From assembly GCA_038883795.1 (NCBI GenBank), contig JAVZLK010000004.1, positions 1 through 64,000 on the forward strand: a stretch of DNA of 64,000 bases, read 5' to 3'. The notes beneath the pieces are model-generated. The model was not told the origin of the DNA and ran no database searches. It saw nothing but the letters and a program-made list of their open reading frames with translations. A program made the position numbers and the translations under genes. Each line of letters begins with the position of its first letter. Positions within the stretch are counted from its first letter, which is position 1. This DNA comes from Candidatus Bathyarchaeia archaeon. GTDB lineage: Archaea > Thermoproteota > Bathyarchaeia > Bathyarchaeales > Bathycorpusculaceae. Below are positions 39,041 to 48,584 of the stretch, piece by piece.

Positions 39041-40537
39041 ATGCCAGAAGCGGCAGCCAACACGGTGCTTTTGACGGCAGACAAAACATTAATGAGCGAT
39101 TATCATCGAAACATATTTTTGGGTTTTGGAACATGCGCCCCGCCGAATGTTATTCCAAACTGGCTTTACAGTTGGCTTTTCTTCCCACCAATAAAAACAA
39201 AAAATGGCATACCAATCGCAGCTCCATATGGACTAAGGAAAATTGAAGCTCAACTTTTAAGCGAAGGCTTCAACGTATTAACTGTTGCACCAGACCACCT
39301 TAAAAAGTACATAGACAAGGCAAAGGTTTTGGGTATATATGTCATGGACCCCTTCGGTTTGGGTCCAGCCTCAAGCACCTTCGCCTACATCCTTAAGAAA
39401 GAACCCTTTTTAGCGCAGCATTTCCGAGCCCTCTTAGATAAGCCGGAAGTCAGATGGGCTAAAAAGCATGGATTAAAGATTATTGTTGGCGGTCCTGGTG
39501 TTTGGCAGTTTCGTTATAGGCCAAAGTTTGTTGAAGAGTATGGAATAGACTGCATAATTGAGGGAGAAGCGGAAAAAGTCATAGGAAAAATTGTCCACGC
39601 AGCCCTTAACGGTGAAGAACTTCCAAAATATTATGAGGTTGGCATTAAAGAGGTGCCAGCCTTAAATGAGATTCCAGAAATTGTGAATCCTTCTATTGAT
39701 GGATTGGTGGAAGTTGGGCGTGGATGCTGTAGGGGATGCGAATTCTGCAGCGTAACATTAAAACCCTTAAGATGGTATCCCTACGAGAAAATACTGCGAG
39801 AAATTGACGTGAACATGAACTTTGGAGACATTAACTGGGCTTGCCTCCATGCGGAAGACGTTATGCTTTACGGCTCAAACAACACTATACCAAACGATGA
39901 AAAGCTCATTAAACTCCATCAATTGGTTTTAAAAAAGTGTGATGGAATAAGCTGGAGCCACTGTTCCTTAGCTGCTATCACATCAAAACCAAAACTTTTC
40001 TCGCAAATCGCCCAACTCATACTCCAAAAACAACCTTGGTGGGGTGCTGAGATTGGAATAGAAACGGGCTCGCCAAAACTTGCAGAAAAAATCATGCCAG
40101 CAAAAGCCCACCCCTTTAAGCCGCAGGAATGGCCAGAGGTTGTCCGCGCCAGCATGGGCTTGATGCATGATAATAAGCTGATTCCAGCTTGCACATTGAT
40201 TGTTGGCATGTTAGAAGAAACAGAAGAAGACATAATCAAGACCATAGAATTGGTAGAAGACCTTAAAGGTGTTAGAAGCTTAATCGTGCCTTTATTTTTT
40301 GTTCCCTTAGGCAGGTTGAAAGATAGAGAATGGTTTAAGGGAACCCAAATGACCGAACTGCATAAAGAATTATTAATCACATGCCTAAAACACGACTTTT
40401 ACTGGATAGAAAACCTAATAGACTTGGCTTTTGCAGGAAAATGGTACGCACACTTACTTCATCCATTTTACAAAGGTTTCGTAAAAATTGTTAAGAATAG
40501 AGCCATAAAGGCTGGAATAACAATAAAAACCAGCTAA
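39041..40537 (+). CDS. B12-binding-domain radical SAM protein (Grs/Gms/Gmm-like tetraether lipid modification family)
   Basis: VLLTADKTLMSDY, APYGLRKIEA, IIVGGPG, EVGRGCCRGCEFC (CxxxCxxC), GIETGS. Confidence 0.8.
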   Translation: MPEAAANTVLLTADKTLMSDYHRNIFLGFGTCAPPNVIPNWLYSWLFFPPIKTKNGIPIAAPYGLRKIEAQLLSEGFNVLTVAPDHLKKYIDKAKVLGIYVMDPFGLGPASSTFAYILKKEPFLAQHFRALLDKPEVRWAKKHGLKIIVGGPGVWQFRYRPKFVEEYGIDCIIEGEAEKVIGKIVHAALNGEELPKYYEVGIKEVPALNEIPEIVNPSIDGLVEVGRGCCRGCEFCSVTLKPLRWYPYEKILREIDVNMNFGDINWACLHAEDVMLYGSNNTIPNDEKLIKLHQLVLKKCDGISWSHCSLAAITSKPKLFSQIAQLILQKQPWWGAEIGIETGSPKLAEKIMPAKAHPFKPQEWPEVVRASMGLMHDNKLIPACTLIVGMLEETEEDIIKTIELVEDLKGVRSLIVPLFFVPLGRLKDREWFKGTQMTELHKELLITCLKHDFYWIENLIDLAFAGKWYAHLLHPFYKGFVKIVKNRAIKAGITIKTS

Positions 40538-41640: not shown

Positions 41641-42114
41641 CTAAAACTGTTGAAGAACATCTCGCTTCTCCATAATATACCCACAATAATGACACTTCAA
41701 AATAAGCGGCTCTTCACTTTCAACATAAAATTTAGCCACAACAGGTTCATTACTATTGCTTATACAAGCAGGATTAGCACATTTAATAATGTCCTCAATA
41801 ACCTTTGGCAACTGAACCCTTTGTTTAGCCACAACATTATAATCACGGATAATGTTAATTGTGGCGTGGGGCGCCAACAAGGCAATTTTATGCACTTCTT
41901 GGGGGTTTAATTCCCTGCCCTCAATCTTGACAATATCCTTAACTTTAAAACGCTTACTTGGAACATTAATGGCAATTGTAATAATGCCCTTCTCTCTTCC
42001 AGTTATTCCCAAAATTCTAGCCACATCTAAGGCGTGACCGCCAGTTATATGGTCAATAACAGTGCCATCCTTAATTTTTGAAACGTGCAGCATCGTATCG
42101 CTCATGCGTACCAT
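41641..42114 (-). CDS. pyrI: Aspartate carbamoyltransferase regulatory subunit
   Basis: IKDGTVIDHI, KDIVKIEG, CANPACISN, CHYC. Confidence 0.95.
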   Translation of the reverse strand: MVRMSDTMLHVSKIKDGTVIDHITGGHALDVARILGITGREKGIITIAINVPSKRFKVKDIVKIEGRELNPQEVHKIALLAPHATINIIRDYNVVAKQRVQLPKVIEDIIKCANPACISNSNEPVVAKFYVESEEPLILKCHYCGYIMEKRDVLQQF

Positions 42115-42199
42115 CTCTCTGTGAAGAGGCTATAATCTAAACAAGCATAAAAGATTTTAACTGTTCTGGCAGTGGTTGCTGATAAAAGTTATTTAGTAG

Positions 42200-43147
<948 letters not shown>

Positions 43148-43156
43148 CATTCGAAA

Positions 43157-45370
43157 TTAGACTGATGCAAAACGGTCAAAGGACGTCAGTGTGTCTATTG
43201 CTCCACATGATGGGCATTTATGCAAAAGTCCGAACCAGCTTCTTTTGCAGTTGAAGCAATAAGTCAGTTTGCAGTCATAAGTGAAAAATTCAATGCTGTA
43301 ACCCTCGAAAATTTGTTTGGTTAAAGCCATAAGCTCTTCAGGTTTATGTTCAGCATCTCCAAGCTCTATTATCGTTAAGCTTCCACCAGAATAAAGCCTC
43401 TGCATTTCCTGTTCAAATCTTAAGGCTTCTGGACTAATTTTTCCATCACTTAATGTTAGTTTGCTGACTGTTGAATAGTATGGTTTTTCCCTTGTTCCCG
43501 AGAATCGAATTTTCGCTACGCCGAATCTTTCAATGTCTAATCTTGCCAACCTTTCGGAAGCTTCAAAATCGGGTAATTTCGCTGGGACTAAGTTTTTTTC
43601 GCGTCTTCTGTCAATTTTGTGTGTATAATCCAAAATGTTTTGCATAATTTCTCTGGTAAAATCAAATGTTCTTTCATCTTCGCCAACATTTTTTCGGCAA
43701 AAGGCTTCGATTGTTTCTTTTAATCCTGCCAAATTTATTATGCAAGAACAGTTCTCATTTCTAAAATATCGGTCACCATTAATGTTTTGCAGTAGAAATG
43801 GAAGCAAACCTTTACCATGCTGTTTAATGGATTTATGCTTGATTTCTAAAGCCCGCGATGCCAAATCAAGCCTCTCTTTTAACGTCTGAAAGAATTTTGC
43901 CTTATCCCCTTCGCTTTCATATGCAATGCGTGGCAAATTAAGAGTTACATGGGCTAATTTTCCCGTGCGCAAAGTATCTATTTCCCAATCCCCATCCAAA
44001 CTCGCCCCTAGCCTAAATCCAGAGGCGGAGAAAACACTTTGCCTTTCCTCTTCTTTTAGGAGATTAGCAAAATAGGGTATTCCCCTTTCTGAAGCCAGTT
44101 GATGCGCCTTAAAAATTATGGCCTCCGCTTTCTCGTCTGCGAAGGCTTCTGGGCGTATTTTCAGAATAAGTTTTGGATTAAGTAAGGGCTTACTTGCGCT
44201 TTCTTCAATAAATATGTCGAGGAGAAGGGAAGCCAAATTTTGACTTTCCTCAAAGAAATCTCGATAATTACCCGCTAATTTTCCAGAGACTCCCACAGCT
44301 GGCTTGTTTGCAATAAAACCTGGAAGCGTCGGCTCAAGGCTTATGGAAACGTTCGCATGCTGATTTAGATTAATAATGAATAAGCGTAAAGCTTCCTTAA
44401 CCTCTGAAGCGCCTAAGCCTTTTACAAAGGGAGCGAGAAAAACATTAAAATACTCAAGGGTTTGCGTTTCGCATATTTCCTTGGACGAATGCAAAAGAAC
44501 ATTAAAAATGAGGGAAAGGGCTGTTTCCAAATTTTTAGGAGGAGGGAAAGAAAATTGAGAAGCATTTATTTTCTCTAATTTCAAGCCATTCTGGAAGAAA
44601 AATCTCAAATCATGCACAATCTCGCTTGGCTTCAAAATCCAAGAACCAAGCCCACTTATGTGCATTGAACCGGACAAGTGGGCGTCTGCAATATCCCTTG
44701 GAAAAACGTTTAGAAGCGTAAACTCTTTTAAAACAATGTCGCCAGCCGTTTCATGAATGTAAACCGGCCACTGGGGAGTTTTACTTTTCAAGTCGACAAG
44801 GGCTGCAACGTCATAGACTGGAAGCCCCAGCCTTGTGAGTTTGTGACGGTAATCTTCCAAGCCTTTTTCAATCAAAATTGCGTTTACAACCTCCCTCACA
44901 AGGGGCGCCGTCAAATACTTGGGCTTTGACTTAAGCAGCCTTTTTTCTGCTTCTTTGGCAACCTTTTGCGCCAAATCAGCAGGCATCTTCGTCTCTCTTA
45001 TGAGCGAATTAGCTATTTTGCTAACATCAAACTCCTCAAGTGTGAATTTGGAAGTGCGGACAAGCATGCTTCTGGGCTTGAAGGCTCTCTTTTCAATTCG
45101 CTCCGCCACCTCAATAACCATCTCGCCCAAATCCGTTAAACAATACTTTTTTGCTTCCACGTCTGCCTCAATCAAATCCGCCTTCAACAAAAACTTCAAG
45201 TGATAAGCAAACCTTCCAGCATCCCTTGTGGGGTTCATCTTCAAAGAACCCATCAACTCAGTATAGGAAAGGGGACCCCTATCAAAAAGCAAATTCAAAA
45301 TCTGTAGCCTAACTGGTGAAGAAACAGCTTTGAGTATCCTAACTCCCCGCACACGATGTGGAACAGACAA
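43157..45370 (-). CDS. nrdD: ArsR-wHTH + ATP-cone + anaerobic (class III) ribonucleotide reductase-like fusion, apparently catalytically inactive
   Basis: N-terminal LKAVSSPVRLQIL..FAYHLKFL; ATP cone LTAPLVREVV; RLGLPVYD, ADAHLSG, TLNLPRIAY, RLARLD, Zn ribbon CFNC..CPSCG. No RxxGY motif and no GCR cysteine. Confidence 0.85.
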   Translation of the reverse strand: MSVPHRVRGVRILKAVSSPVRLQILNLLFDRGPLSYTELMGSLKMNPTRDAGRFAYHLKFLLKADLIEADVEAKKYCLTDLGEMVIEVAERIEKRAFKPRSMLVRTSKFTLEEFDVSKIANSLIRETKMPADLAQKVAKEAEKRLLKSKPKYLTAPLVREVVNAILIEKGLEDYRHKLTRLGLPVYDVAALVDLKSKTPQWPVYIHETAGDIVLKEFTLLNVFPRDIADAHLSGSMHISGLGSWILKPSEIVHDLRFFFQNGLKLEKINASQFSFPPPKNLETALSLIFNVLLHSSKEICETQTLEYFNVFLAPFVKGLGASEVKEALRLFIINLNQHANVSISLEPTLPGFIANKPAVGVSGKLAGNYRDFFEESQNLASLLLDIFIEESASKPLLNPKLILKIRPEAFADEKAEAIIFKAHQLASERGIPYFANLLKEEERQSVFSASGFRLGASLDGDWEIDTLRTGKLAHVTLNLPRIAYESEGDKAKFFQTLKERLDLASRALEIKHKSIKQHGKGLLPFLLQNINGDRYFRNENCSCIINLAGLKETIEAFCRKNVGEDERTFDFTREIMQNILDYTHKIDRRREKNLVPAKLPDFEASERLARLDIERFGVAKIRFSGTREKPYYSTVSKLTLSDGKISPEALRFEQEMQRLYSGGSLTIIELGDAEHKPEELMALTKQIFEGYSIEFFTYDCKLTYCFNCKRSWFGLLHKCPSCGAIDTLTSFDRFASV

Positions 45371-45475
45371 AGGCTCAGCCTCCAGCCCGGTAAAGGCAAT
45401 TAGCGAAATAAGGGTTTAAAAGGTAAGAACACTTTATCCTTATATGCTTTTCAATCACTAAAAATCTTAAAGAGG

Positions 45476-45553
45476 GGGGCTGTCGGCTAGCTTGGTCTAG
45501 GCTTGGAGACTCGGGCTCTCTAGACCCCGGTTCAAATCCGGGCAGCCCCACCA
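45476..45553 (+). tRNA. tRNA-Pro(CGG)
   Basis: GGGGCTGTCGGCTAGCTTGGTCTAGGCTTGGAGACT-CGG-GCTCTCTAGACCCCGGTTCAAATCCGGGCAGCCCCACCA. Confidence 0.93.
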
Positions 45554-45563
45554 AGCTTTGAGT

Positions 45564-47516
45564 TTAAACCTCTGAAAGAGGGAGCAAGGTCAAAATTCTG
45601 AAGGCTGTTCCTCCAAATAGGATGGCGAAGGTTATCTCGAAAATTGTTATGTATACTGCTTTTTTCCATCCGAACTCTTTGGTTAAGGCTGCAATTGTTG
45701 ATATGCATGGTATGTAAAACATGGCTACCAGTGTGAAAACAACCATTTGGACGGGTCCGAATCCTGGAATTTCTGCGAAATTTGTTGTTCCAAAAAGCGT
45801 TGCAAGCATGATTAACGTTAATTCTTTCCTTAAAACGCCAAAAATTAATGTTATTCCCGTAATTGCGGGCAGTCCAAGCCATGCGACTGTTATGGGGCTT
45901 AACAAGTTTGCGATTGGCTCAAGTAAACCCAATATTTCGATAAGTTTTATGGTGATGCTTCCAACAATTATTATTGGAAAAGCTATTTTTATGAACTCAG
46001 CCAGCCTAAACCATGCTTGCTTTAAAATTGTCTTTAAATGGGGCAGTCGGTAATCAGACATTTCCATAATTAGGGCTGTGGGTTCGCCTGGCAATGCTTT
46101 AAATGCGAGTCTTCCAAGGATGAAGATTATGGCTAGGTTGAAAATGTAAAGGGCTAATGCGTATTGAACTCCTAAATATGTGCCAACTAAACCGAGGATT
46201 ATGACTGTGCGGGCTGCGCATGGAACAAGCGTTGTTACAAAGGCTGCGAGAAGTCTTTCCCTTTGGGTTTCCATTATTCTACATCCCAAACAGGCGGGAA
46301 CGTTGCATCCATAACCGAGAATTAGCGGGATGAAGGCTTTTCCATGCAGTCCCATTTTGTGCATTATGTTGTCCATTAAGAAGGCGATTCGGCTCAGGTA
46401 GCCCGAATCTTCAAGGAAGTATAGTATAATGTAAAATGGGACTATGTAGGGCAGTGCTATTGTGACGCCAGCAAGGATGCCTTCCAAAGCGCTCCAAACT
46501 ATTTTCCCAAAAATTTCTGTTCCAAAAAAGCTTTCAAAAGCGGGTCTCCAGTTGTAAAATAAATTGTTTAATGCATCTGAGGTGTATCCTCCGAAGGTGA
46601 AAATTGAATAGAATATTAAGAGCAGCGAGAAAGCCATTATTGGGTATCCCATGACCTTATGGGTTGTAATGTTGTGAAGTTGCTCCCCAAACTTTGGCTT
46701 TATTGGAGAAACCAGTTTTTGGGCTTCTCTGGCGATGCAGCCAGCAATTTCGTAACGCTCCGAAGTTATCACCGTTGAGCAAGAATGTCCATGAAGCTTT
46801 TCGATTTCTTTTGCAAGTTTTTTGGCTGCAGAAACTATTTTTGGATTAACTTTCGCGACTTCCCTCTCTATTTCTTCGTCTCCTTCCAGCAATTTGATTG
46901 CTACATATCTTGGCGGATACCAAAATTGGATGGGTTCAACCATTTTTGTGAGTTCGGCTATTTTCTTTTCAACCTCTTCCCCAAACCTCACTGGAACACG
47001 ATTTGCCGCTAATCCTTTTTCAGCCACTTCTATTGCTTTTTCTAAAAGTTGAAAGACGCCAACCCCTTTTATGGCAACGGTTGGGATGACTGGTATTCCT
47101 AAAAGCTTCTCCAGTTTTTCCACATCTATTTGAATTCCTTTTCTCTTTGCCATATCCATTTGATTTAATGCTATAACCATAGGGGTTTCCAATTCCATAA
47201 GCTGCAGCGTAAAGTAGAGGTTTCTTTCAAGAACCGAAGCATCCACAACATTTATTACAACATCTGGTTTTTCCACAGCAATATATTTTCTTGAAATCAA
47301 CTCTTCTAGGGAATAGGTTGAAAGCGAATAAATTCCGGGCAAATCAATAATGTCTATAGTGTAGCCCTTAAAGTGAAGCGTGCCCTCCGCTTTTTCAACA
47401 GTTTTTCCAGGCCAATTGCCAATATGCTGATGCAAACCAGTTAGGTAGTTGAATATGACGGATTTTCCAACATTGGCGTTTCCAGCCAAAGCAATGAGCA
47501 GTTTCTTCTTAGCCAT
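45564..47516 (-). CDS. feoB: Ferrous iron transporter B
   Basis: GNANVGKS, GNWPGKTVE, DLPGIYSL, NQMD, GYGCNVPA; membrane domain. Confidence 0.97.
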   Translation of the reverse strand: MAKKKLLIALAGNANVGKSVIFNYLTGLHQHIGNWPGKTVEKAEGTLHFKGYTIDIIDLPGIYSLSTYSLEELISRKYIAVEKPDVVINVVDASVLERNLYFTLQLMELETPMVIALNQMDMAKRKGIQIDVEKLEKLLGIPVIPTVAIKGVGVFQLLEKAIEVAEKGLAANRVPVRFGEEVEKKIAELTKMVEPIQFWYPPRYVAIKLLEGDEEIEREVAKVNPKIVSAAKKLAKEIEKLHGHSCSTVITSERYEIAGCIAREAQKLVSPIKPKFGEQLHNITTHKVMGYPIMAFSLLLIFYSIFTFGGYTSDALNNLFYNWRPAFESFFGTEIFGKIVWSALEGILAGVTIALPYIVPFYIILYFLEDSGYLSRIAFLMDNIMHKMGLHGKAFIPLILGYGCNVPACLGCRIMETQRERLLAAFVTTLVPCAARTVIILGLVGTYLGVQYALALYIFNLAIIFILGRLAFKALPGEPTALIMEMSDYRLPHLKTILKQAWFRLAEFIKIAFPIIIVGSITIKLIEILGLLEPIANLLSPITVAWLGLPAITGITLIFGVLRKELTLIMLATLFGTTNFAEIPGFGPVQMVVFTLVAMFYIPCISTIAALTKEFGWKKAVYITIFEITFAILFGGTAFRILTLLPLSEV

Positions 47517-47792
47517 TTACCGTTCTATCTCCACGAGAATTTTCTCTGCCATGCCTCTGCCAATGGCAAGCCTTGAGCCTCTCACAAGAATTTCTAACGG
47601 TCCATGGAAAGGGGCTGATTTTACTACGGTTACTTTTGTGCCCGGAGTTAAACCCATGTCCATGAGTCGCTTTTCAAATCCCCATCTTCCACGTCCTCTT
47701 CCCCTTCCTCTGCCGTGTCCTGCCTTTACAGAAGTAACTATTCCAGTCTCTCCATCCTTCAGTGCGGTCAATGGAACTTCCCGTTTTTCCAT
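47517..47792 (-). CDS. feoA: Ferrous iron transport protein A
   Basis: RLMDMGLTPG..APFHGPLEILVRGSRLAIGRG; track start 47810. Confidence 0.93.
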   Translation of the reverse strand: MEKREVPLTALKDGETGIVTSVKAGHGRGRGRGRGRWGFEKRLMDMGLTPGTKVTVVKSAPFHGPLEILVRGSRLAIGRGMAEKILVEIER

Positions 47793-47806
47793 AAAATCAC
47801 AACCTT

Positions 47807-48478
47807 TCATTTTAACTGTTTAACTTGGATGACCGAGGCGACTTGACGACTTATTGCATGGCGATTTGAACCCACCTTTACGGTGATTGGGCCACTCATG
47901 GGAGCTTTATCCAAAATCTCTATGGAGGCTCCGGGCACAAGACCCAGCTTACCCAAATATTGAAGCAATTCCACATGTTCTTCTGTTATTTTCACTATCG
48001 TTCCTTTCCTTCCTGTGGCAAAATCGGTTAGAGGCAGCGATTTTTCTTCTATTATTCCACCGCATGCTGTGGGTATGGGGTTTCCGTGGGGACAGGTTTT
48101 TGGATGTTTAAGCGCTTTCTCTAAAGGTTTGATTATTTCCTTTGTTATGCCATGTTCCAACTTGCAAGCTGCATCGTGAACCTTCTCCCATTCTATATGG
48201 AGGATGTCCACAAGCAAACGTTCCGATAAGCGATGCCTTCTTATAACTTGTAAGGCTATTTTTCTACCCTTTTCCGTAAGCTTAACGCCTTTGTAAGGTG
48301 AATGCGTCAAAAATCCTTCCTTTTCGAGGCGTTCCACAGTGTTTGTAACTGTTCCAGGCACAACCCCAAGCATTTTAACGATATCACTGGTTCTGGCGGC
48401 TCCGCTCTTTTCCTCCAGCCTATAAATACATTCGAGATATTCTTCTGTGGCTGCTGTGATTTCTTCGTTTTCAGACAT
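47807..48478 (-). CDS. DtxR/MntR metal-dependent repressor with FeoA domain
   Basis: EEYLECIY, RRHRLSERLL, ACKLEH, CPHGNPIP; ATG 48478 (track start 48565). Confidence 0.93.
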   Translation of the reverse strand: MSENEEITAATEEYLECIYRLEEKSGAARTSDIVKMLGVVPGTVTNTVERLEKEGFLTHSPYKGVKLTEKGRKIALQVIRRHRLSERLLVDILHIEWEKVHDAACKLEHGITKEIIKPLEKALKHPKTCPHGNPIPTACGGIIEEKSLPLTDFATGRKGTIVKITEEHVELLQYLGKLGLVPGASIEILDKAPMSGPITVKVGSNRHAISRQVASVIQVKQLK

Positions 48479-48584
48479 TTTACGAGCTCTCCAAATTAAA
48501 ATTACGAGAAGTCGTATTTTAACTTTCTCAAAGCATAAATCTTTTATGCGGTCGCCAAAAAACATTCAATTCGAGGAAAATTTT

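Follow-up and report, generated by a model that had tools for sequence, protein, structure and literature searches.

An archaeal gene was analysed that lies on a 64,000-nucleotide stretch of DNA from a member of the Bathyarchaeia (contig JAVZLK010000004.1, positions 1 to 64,000), referred to here as the window. This fusion gene, an unbroken frame of 737 codons on the minus strand (43157-45370), opens with TTG and is preceded by GGAGG 8 nt 5' of the start (45379-45383). Its product joins a winged helix-turn-helix (wHTH) of the ArsR/SmtB type to an ATP-cone and to the barrel and zinc ribbon of NrdD, the catalytic subunit of class III ribonucleotide reductase (RNR), and the residues known to be needed for catalysis are missing from it (Table 1). 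From the comparisons described below it is well supported that the protein is a pseudoenzyme and a DNA-binding regulator linked to RNR genes.

Table 1. Features of the fusion gene and its immediate surroundings in the window
Feature	Position	Strand	Evidence or remark
Complete fusion gene (wHTH, atypical ATP-cone, catalytically inactive NrdD barrel, Zn ribbon)	43157..45370	-	737 aa, TTG start
ArsR/SmtB-type wHTH (residues 13-87), recognition helix RDAGRFAYHLKFL	45110..45334	-	Pfam HTH_5 and DUF7347
Atypical ATP-cone (residues 102-174), VRTSK instead of canonical V(R)KRDG	44849..45067	-	Pfam ATP-cone, 29.6 bits
Linker TRLGLPVYDV (residues 179-188), cone to barrel, invariant	44807..44836	-	R180, G182, P184 invariant (66 and 39 sequences)
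NrdD alpha/beta-barrel core without radical or substrate-site residues	43301..44761	-	Pfam, BLASTP, column comparison
E250 at first radical Cys position (KPSEIVHDLR)	44621..44623	-	BLASTP; Cys in 0/71 HTH-bearing representatives
Finger-loop remnant SASGFR, F452 replacing the thiyl-radical Cys	44012..44029	-	BLASTP; Cys in 2/71 HTH-bearing representatives
Zn ribbon CxxC...CxxC (C705, C708, C719, C722)	43205..43258	-	Invariant in 66 family sequences
Short C-terminal tail and stop, no glycyl-radical loop	43157..43204	-	Translation, Pfam
Conserved TATA-like sequence TTTTAAAC	45414..45421	-	About 45 nt 5' of start
pyrB, convergent neighbour, probably a synteny remnant	42215..43147	+	TIGR00670, 402.6 bits

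Domain architecture and lost residues

An intact frame with an ArsR-type wHTH, an ATP cone, the NrdD barrel, and a zinc ribbon had been described in the initial annotation, and translation and Pfam searches agree with it. Matches of the window protein above the Pfam cut-offs were obtained for HTH_5 (residues 18-68, 26.5 bits, cut-off 22), DUF7347 (residues 13-87, 30.0 bits, cut-off 27.6), ATP-cone (residues 102-174, 29.6 bits, cut-off 25.8), and NRDD (PF13597; residues 204-727, 256.7 bits, cut-off 26.2). The NRDD alignment spans profile positions 11-532 of 562, the final 30 positions with the glycyl-radical loop being absent. Among the NCBIfam models, the NrdD equivalog TIGR02487 remained under its cut-off (264.6 vs 326.35 bits), and no match to TIGR00244 (NrdR) was detected. 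The protein ends with ...CPSCGAIDTLTSFDRFASV, 15 residues past the last cysteine of the zinc ribbon; its start, LSVPHR..., is common to the fusion gene and its orthologues.

Structure prediction, suggested as a check in the initial annotation, yielded a confident full-length AlphaFold2 model from a 66-sequence alignment (predicted local distance difference test 88.6, predicted template modelling score 0.81). Its best Foldseek matches were class III RNRs with E-values of 4e-27 to 7e-19, among them 9dca, 9d3x, 8p2c, 4coj, and 1hk8 (4e-27 to 4e-20). The ten-stranded barrel fold and the C-terminal zinc ribbon of NrdD are present in the window protein, and the four cysteines are invariant.

Residues 1-96 of the model show the order helix-helix-helix-recognition helix-hairpin-helix, which we take to be the ArsR/SmtB topology. 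The family profile matched ArsR (6j05, 1y0u) and HlyU (3jth) with E-values of 1e-3 to 4e-3 and with the ..HLK..L helix aligned. HTH_5 exceeded its Pfam cut-off and the NCBIfam model for ArsR, NF033788, remained under its own (29.6 bits, cut-off 55); by these profiles the wHTH is ArsR-like at the domain level only. None of D50, A51, G52, F54, Y56, and H57 varies among 39 sequences. Within Bathyarchaeia, the recognition helix, (R/K)(D/E)(A/S)G(R/K)FAYHL(K/R), does not vary, and it is almost unchanged in Nitrosopumilaceae, whose members have G(K/R)FAYHL(K/R) in common. Therefore, a DNA site shared by both groups is predicted.

Residue roles were taken from the available part of a study on NrdD of Prevotella copri, PcNrdD (Cys416, Cys171, Gly711/Tyr712, the NxN flap 114-116, and loop 2; PMC11226230). 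Equivalent residues were determined by BLASTP against the canonical NrdD of the same genome (P0122; 24% identity, E 3e-45) and against the native Bathyarchaeial NrdD (e.g. L146:648-2765; 33% identity across 643 residues, E 6e-103). The first radical cysteine is replaced by glutamate, SASGFR aligns with SMCCR or SQCCR of canonical NrdDs, ENAN, the NxN flap of the native NrdD, corresponds to a gap, and the RxxGY glycyl-radical loop is absent. Both comparisons and the Pfam result confirmed what had been noted initially, namely that the glycyl-radical loop, the finger-loop cysteine, and the cysteine before HDLR are missing. The native NrdD and the fusion protein share the VRTS cone, the TRLGLPVYDV linker, the fold, the zinc ribbon, and NLPR. 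In contrast to the native enzyme, the fusion protein lacks the radical cysteine pair, Gly-Tyr, the NxN flap, and loop 2, scores under the TIGR02487 cut-off, and has an additional wHTH. It derives from NrdD yet falls outside the family in every test of catalytic features.

For the wider family, 99 representatives of 560-830 amino acids (from the best 150 of a search at 50% identity) were aligned with the window protein and P0122. Representatives were considered HTH-bearing if matched by the family HTH profile (hmmsearch, E <= 1e-3), which applied to 71 of the 99. None of these 71 has cysteine at the first radical column, two have it at the thiyl column, and 12 have glycine at the radical column, the loop being absent in 24. 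Homologues keeping RxxGY and the catalytic cysteine would have pointed to a local truncation, as the initial annotation had remarked; cysteine, cysteine, and glycine are all retained in 0/71 HTH-bearing representatives vs 10/28 without HTH. The asparagine of the NLPR motif is retained in all 71. No HTH was found by Pfam scan in seven of seven canonical relatives; an N-terminal extension is present in three of them, with two ATP-cone stretches in two of those.

Distant dead members often retain the C-terminal domain (..GRxxxxYLPLxxW..) with the glycine exchanged for Ala, Ser, Thr, or Asn, and in the subclade of the window protein the glycyl-radical domain is wholly gone. From this distribution it looks as if inactivation came first and truncation followed. 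A column comparison of 17 canonical and 40 dead sequences pointed to loss of the substrate site as well. Of 55 columns conserved to at least 90% in the canonical set, 22 persist in 80% or more of the dead members and another 22 in less than 30%. Retained were AHxxGxxH, HD, NLPR, the zinc ribbon, and structural Pro/Gly; lost were both flap asparagines (each column kept in 0-7% of the dead members), both cysteines, Gly-Tyr, and the asparagine of TNS. A GGQ..F loop, probably loop 2, is deleted in 36 of the 40. With the flap, loop 2, and further residues of the substrate site missing, binding of nucleoside triphosphates (NTPs) by the barrel in the known way has probably been lost, and canonical substrate binding, or signalling from effector to substrate through loop 2, is not expected in it.

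The retained NLPR asparagine, together with a ratio of nonsynonymous to synonymous substitution rates (dN/dS) of 0.11-0.13 in the barrel, could be taken to mean that the protein is still an enzyme with an altered, non-glycyl-radical chemistry on nucleotides. The loss of both cysteines, Gly-Tyr, the NxN flap, loop 2, and TNS, the TIGR02487 score of 264.6 against a cut-off of 326.35, and the lack of an activase gene nearby all argue against such an enzyme, which is considered very improbable.

Conservation and distribution of the family

Of 8000 candidates scored in a word-indexed search, 2055 proteins matched at E <= 1e-3. The top 120 clusters have the same architecture, a length of 690-770 amino acids, and 65-91% identity. 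In the databases, some homologues are named 'anaerobic ribonucleoside-triphosphate reductase' and others 'ArsR family transcriptional regulator'. An exhaustive search of representatives at 50% identity gave 2083 matches at E <= 1e-3 and 414 at E <= 1e-30. In a maximum-likelihood tree of the barrel region (quick search, LG+G4, nearest relatives as the canonical sample), a single branch with a Shimodaira-Hasegawa-like approximate likelihood ratio support of 99 parts the 40 dead from the 17 canonical sequences.

Relative to the three closest orthologues (L067, L065, L066), dN/dS was 0.086-0.103 for the whole gene, 0.02-0.10 for the HTH, 0.01-0.03 for cone and linker, and, as given above, highest for the barrel; for more distant pairs, synonymous sites are saturated. 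A conserved pseudoenzyme rather than a local truncation is indicated by these values (about 0.09) and by the complete absence of the cysteine, cysteine, and glycine combination from the 71 HTH-bearing representatives. Conservation of the fusion and of the residue losses under purifying selection alongside an active RNR, which the initial annotation had named as a point to be checked, was found as well: the window genome has NrdD and a class II RNR. The reading as a decaying pseudogene, or as an artefact of annotation or assembly, is refuted. Only the missing C-terminus would speak for it, and it is contradicted by the intact frame, by orthologues of 730-737 amino acids in at least 120 clusters, by a fusion-level match in 137 of 201 genomes of the class, and by a dN/dS of 0.09.

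The latter count was obtained as follows. The window protein matched 187 of 201 Bathyarchaeia genomes at E <= 1e-20, and 50 of these 187 contained canonical-level cross-matches only (best E 1e-21 to 1e-53). These were excluded (all 40 of family f18, four of f15, and G006, G048, G020, G056, G025, and G117), which leaves, by our reading of the table, about two thirds of the genomes with the fusion. All 27 relatives within the family of the window genome have it. With the distant member P0190 as query, 124 of 301 genomes from the rest of the phylum matched at E <= 1e-60, including 43 of 43 in family f33, which is of Nitrosopumilaceae type; no match was found among the searched genomes of families f34, f41, f42, f46, f48, and f50. 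Exact look-up of f33 proteins gave the names Nitrosotalea devaniterrae, Nitrosarchaeum limnium, and Nitrosopumilaceae, all of them aerobic ammonia oxidisers. One homologue cluster is named Thorarchaeota (Asgard).

Some members of the dead family (P0167, P0169, P0180, P0209, P0212, P0216, and others) are 1100-1700 amino acids long and match in two to four separate stretches, and one Bathyarchaeial fusion frame has 1608 codons (L147:7059-11885, minus strand). They resemble insertions of intein size, located in a protein that has ceased to be an enzyme. The fusion is divided into two adjacent frames in G095 (C3:909605-911783; residues 1-260 and 256-731) and in G032 (C4:69468-71680; residues 2-487 and 480-736), which may represent a genuine split or result from a frameshift or an assembly error.

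The region 43157-45370 was detected in 13 public runs from seven studies labelled hot springs metagenome, four of which hold at least half of the sampled words. One RNA-Seq run (X12) contained a single 200-nt contig matching 43504-43703 with one mismatch, too weak to claim transcription, and two further runs labelled 'metatranscriptomic' are probably DNA.

Linkage to RNR genes and promoter sequences

Outside the family of the window genome, 26 Bathyarchaeial genomes hold both the fusion and a native nrdD, and in 21 of them, by our reading of the tables, the fusion lies directly 5' of nrdD on the same strand; in the other five (G176, G013, G004, G071, G049) the two are on different contigs or at different places. 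Twelve of the fusion-nrdD loci were fetched and 11 scanned with Pfam, L153 being left out. All 11 show the order fusion - (glutaredoxin/thioredoxin) - canonical NrdD, and in nine a convergent pyrB follows nrdD. In 15 of 16 f33 loci the fusion is located about 250 bp 5' of a class II RNR gene, both on the same strand; the sixteenth locus ends at a contig edge. The adjacency of fusion and RNR genes thus spans two classes of archaea and two classes of RNR.

The fusion was the only PF13597 match in five of five complete f33 genomes (68-76 bits), and since no other NRDD match is present there, it works without any class III enzyme partner. This bears on the possibility that the dead paralogue acts by protein-protein contact, pairing with or titrating active NrdD or NrdG. 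NrdD enzymes are dimeric, the dead copy retains 22 of 55 canonical columns including structural ones, and it adjoins nrdD in many genomes, all of which would suit such a partner. The f33 genomes argue against it, as do the low identity to the NrdD of the window genome (24%) and the position of the wHTH among the most constrained parts of the protein; protein contact is therefore regarded as improbable.

The window genome (G000) is available as an assembly of 2.18 Mb in 81 contigs with 87% completeness. Besides the window gene it has a single further NRDD match, a full-length gene on contig C11 (668.9 bits, profile positions 1-562) that retains MCCRLR and RVVGY. The C11 nrdD gene is preceded by nrdR (TIGR00244, 160.7 bits, cut-off 124.65), then comes nrdG (TIGR02495, 192.9 bits, cut-off 131.15), and a class II RNR gene is located on contig C9. 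The absence of an NrdG activase near the fusion gene, remarked upon earlier, proved correct: none was detected within the 64-kb window, whose one radical S-adenosylmethionine (SAM) gene scores under all NCBIfam cut-offs, and NrdG of this genome adjoins the real NrdD on another contig.

A scan of G000 with what we take to be the NrdR-box consensus gave a single perfect match, ACACTATATATAGTGT, 5' of nrdR (C11:26311-26326; L001:635-650). On C9, the contig of the class II RNR, no match with up to three mismatches to this presumed consensus was found. NrdR is present in 39 of 41 genomes of the family, and the family nrdR promoters have two NrdR-like boxes downstream of the TATA box. The initial annotation had proposed an archaeal functional analogue of NrdR; in this genome the fusion does not fill in for an absent NrdR, because a genuine NrdR with a perfect box precedes nrdD-nrdG. 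On the other hand, NrdR was over its cut-off in none of five genomes from families with RNR-adjacent fusions (f4, f5, f13, f31, f33; completeness 88-99%). In the accessible part of PMC9110341, NrdR is described as rare in archaea.

The NrdR-nrdD-nrdG operon (L001:701-3955) is of bacterial type, although found in an archaeon, and a second box-like site lies past its TATA box. In G136 (L154:3948-6056), the nrdD after the fusion is of the non-native type known from this operon, as judged by its group in the tree and a strong canonical cone (82.7 bits), which suggests that in this genus the enzyme was replaced in place and the regulator stayed.

Three class II RNR frames of the family (L062, L063, L064, from G226, G203, and G222) comprise 1071-1081 amino acids, and their matches are split at residue ~385 by an insert of ~370 residues, probably an intein; several other class II RNR matches have a single in-frame stop. 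Inspection by eye revealed a short rubredoxin-like gene ending ...DWVCPVCGAPK(D/S)QFVKKE 5' of the class II RNR gene in many family genomes (L035 and most of L036-L064). In the family class II RNR promoters, a TTT(C/G)AAAAC-TTTATAT block is conserved, and ahead of the start codon there is frequently an imperfect CAATT...AATTG repeat.

In the window, the stop codons of the fusion gene and pyrB are separated by 9 bp. The convergent arrangement had been recognised initially and was confirmed here; in the family of the window genome it was observed in all 25 loci of the class search and at 77 of the 80 loci of a GTDB scan, the exceptions being two contig edges and a rearranged locus (L091). The frequent pyrB neighbour and the retention of the fusion in this family without an adjacent RNR gene could speak for a wider regulon including pyrimidine synthesis. 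Genes 5' of the fusion vary, however, with pyrG and pyrH in one of 58 loci each, and a pyrimidine link via upstream genes was dropped. A pyrimidine regulon is not supported, and a leftover of the older fusion-nrdD / pyrB order (9/11 loci) explains the pyrB adjacency better. The native NrdD type was found in none of 27 genomes of the window's family, whose present NrdD, accompanied by NrdR and NrdG, is a distant type on a long tree branch with 24% identity to the fusion. The simplest history compatible with these gene orders would be an older fusion-nrdD / convergent pyrB layout from which this family lost nrdD, leaving fusion and pyrB side by side.

Promoter regions were searched for a possible operator. 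The word TGT[CT]AAT was found in 12 of 15 nrdD promoters that follow the fusion with an intergenic region of their own, in constant orientation and 20-55 nt 5' of a TACAG-N7-TATACAG repeat. It is also present in eight of 15 class II RNR intergenic regions of f33, often as TGTCAA-N5-7-TTGA(A/C); for both sets the expectation from shuffled sequences was 0.16-0.18. None of 14 control nrdD promoters, five from co-transcribed cases and nine from genomes without adjacent fusion, contained it. TGT[CT]AAT is considered a lead and is not claimed as operator. Upstream of the fusion gene itself, CTTTAAAC(C/T)CTTA is invariant in nine close orthologues and present across families, and a phylogenetic footprint of this promoter in the nine orthologues revealed nothing beyond the block of transcription factor B recognition element and TATA box.

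Several other patterns were rejected. TATACA[AG] upstream of nrdD (14/15 vs 0/14) may be a TATA box or reflect tandem promoters and is not claimed as operator. A position weight matrix (PWM) of the TACAG/TATACAG repeats from native nrdD promoters produced only irrelevant intergenic matches in G000 (subtilase, glycosyltransferase), and a bipartite pattern defined by eye occurred in only three of 30 family nrdR promoters. A loose TGTYAA..TTRAM palindrome gave 66 intergenic matches in G000, none of them at the fusion, pyrBI, or class II promoters. Since no PWM or pattern picks out the relevant promoters, no regulon was inferred for G000.

Proposed function and further genes of the window

The cone is the best-conserved part of the window protein. 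R105, F114, I119, E126, R159, L166, R175, R180, G182, and P184 are invariant in 66 sequences, T106 and S107 are conserved to at least 90%, and Y174, invariant like R175 and R180, is also near the cone's C-terminal end. Other family members reach ATP-cone scores of 29-37 bits, and in the AlphaFold2 model the region consists of a beta-hairpin and helices. VRTSK aligns with VRKRDG in the cones of NrdD, NrdR, and class II RNR from the same genome, compared to which the fusion cone is about seven residues short in the last helix. Nucleotide contacts in PcNrdD are made by Lys7, Arg8, Arg87, Arg91, and Tyr83 according to the available part of PMC11226230. The fusion cone and that of an active native NrdD carrying the VRTS motif are 42% identical, and the TRLGLPVYDV linker is shared as well. 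Because the same cone and linker occur in this active enzyme, the fusion inherited a VRTS cone, not a degraded canonical one. Sensing of (d)NTPs, part of the initial annotation, is plausible through the cone.

A DNA-binding regulator responding to another signal, such as redox state, a metal bound via the zinc ribbon or ArsR-type sites, or another metabolite in the barrel, is considered unlikely, also in combination with a wider regulon as mentioned above. The canonical Lys-Arg of the cone is replaced by Thr-Ser, the substrate-site motifs of the barrel are lost, and relatives in the ArsR/SmtB family mostly sense metals or redox. These arguments are countered by the VRTS cone of active native NrdDs, for which a nucleotide role is the default expectation, and by the invariant Y174, R175, and R180 at the cone end.

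The interpretation preferred here, with a probability of about 0.6, is that of a transcription factor made from a duplicated, inactivated class III RNR, which ancestrally controlled RNR genes. By analogy, it would most likely work like NrdR, as a nucleotide-responsive repressor or activator of RNR genes. The N-terminal winged helix would bind DNA, and the dead barrel may serve as a scaffold that places two winged helices, real NrdD being a dimer. The atypical cone and the linker are the most likely signal-receiving part, with an adenine nucleotide as a first guess for the ligand. Control of RNR genes as the ancestral task is suggested by the gene order in other lineages, directly 5' of nrdD or of the class II RNR gene. 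Within the family of the window genome, the neighbouring native nrdD would have been lost, with the NrdR-nrdD-nrdG operon serving instead, and the regulator is maintained by strong purifying selection. The first candidate target in this genome would be the class II RNR gene, for which no NrdR box was found.

A number of observations weigh against this interpretation. Missing from the cone is the Lys-Arg pair by which solved cones contact phosphates (Lys7/Arg8 of PcNrdD); the cone is barely over its Pfam cut-off (29.6 vs 25.8 bits), and gave no significant match to any solved cone by sequence, either with the single sequence or with the family profile; the NxN flap, loop 2, and other substrate-site residues have disappeared from the barrel. 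Within 6 kb of the fusion, NrdD, NrdR, NrdG, or class II RNR was found in none of the 80 loci of the window's family, and the gene-order counts above come from related genomes and are not independent events. TGT[CT]AAT was not enriched in this family (nrdR promoters 6/30 vs 0.17 expected, class II promoters 2/30, own promoters 1/30), nor was the TACAG/TATACAG matrix on 30 family nrdR promoters, where 20% reach 10 bits vs 8.8% of shuffles. Descent within families and a pattern picked by eye inflate the apparent significance of TGT[CT]AAT, and the words found may simply be common elements of promoters, passed on by descent.

A more far-reaching version of the transcription factor reading remains tentative and is given slightly less than an even chance. 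It would make the fusion the native master regulator through which large parts of the Archaea (Bathyarchaeia, Nitrosopumilaceae, and some Asgard) control their deoxyribonucleotide supply, a long-missing counterpart of NrdR that would read the adenine-nucleotide pool via the non-canonical cone shared with native NrdD and control RNRs of any class. In the lineage of the window genome it would operate beside an acquired NrdR, each on a different RNR.

MocR/GabR regulators consist of an HTH fused to an aminotransferase fold; the fusion protein would likewise carry a DNA-binding domain on a full-size enzyme fold as sensor or scaffold, the folds being unrelated. With ArsR/SmtB proteins (ArsR 6j05, HlyU 3jth) it shares the wHTH topology of the model and the ..HL..L signature of the recognition helix. 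Those are, however, stand-alone dimers of ~100 amino acids sensing metals or redox, whereas the wHTH of the fusion is the N-terminal module of a 737-residue protein. NrdR (TIGR00244), the bacterial RNR-specific repressor, resembles the fusion in that a DNA-binding module is joined to a domain of the ATP-cone type (PMC9110341, part available). Genomic linkage to RNR genes of any class and the expected logic, the coupling of deoxyribonucleoside triphosphate (dNTP) supply to RNR transcription, are also alike. NrdR, on the other hand, binds DNA through a zinc ribbon, has about 150 amino acids, and contains a canonical cone; the fusion has an ArsR-type wHTH, an atypical cone, and a dead NrdD barrel of 500 residues, and there is no sequence kinship outside the cone. 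No published description of such an RNR-derived regulator was found in the literature searched (full text, mostly without subscription journals and without supplements). The fusion would be an enzyme-fold transcription factor and a functional parallel of NrdR.

If this is true, it would be the first example of a catalytic RNR subunit turned into a transcription factor. Transcriptional control of archaeal RNR genes is largely unknown and NrdR rare, according to the available part of PMC9110341, and the fusion is a concrete candidate. It occurs in cultivated ammonia oxidisers (Nitrosotalea, Nitrosarchaeum). The database label 'anaerobic ribonucleoside-triphosphate reductase' wrongly implies anaerobic dNTP synthesis in these obligate aerobes, and such mislabelling inflates class III RNR counts in metabolic reconstructions.

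Further genes were noted around the fusion gene. The genes pyrI (minus strand) and pyrB (plus strand) are arranged divergently around a 100-bp intergenic region (41641-43147) and do not form a pyrBI operon; their pairing is retained in many, not all, related loci. The radical SAM gene of the window (39041-40537, plus strand) encodes a 498-residue protein of the B12-binding type (best match TIGR04013, 58.8 bits, sub-cut-off), which is not NrdG, and is syntenic near pyrI in many related loci. On the 5' side, a tRNA-Pro gene (45476-45553, plus strand) parts the fusion gene from a row of genes for a dtxR-like iron repressor with FeoA domain, feoA, and feoB (45564-48565, minus strand), a block common only to the closest relative, L067.

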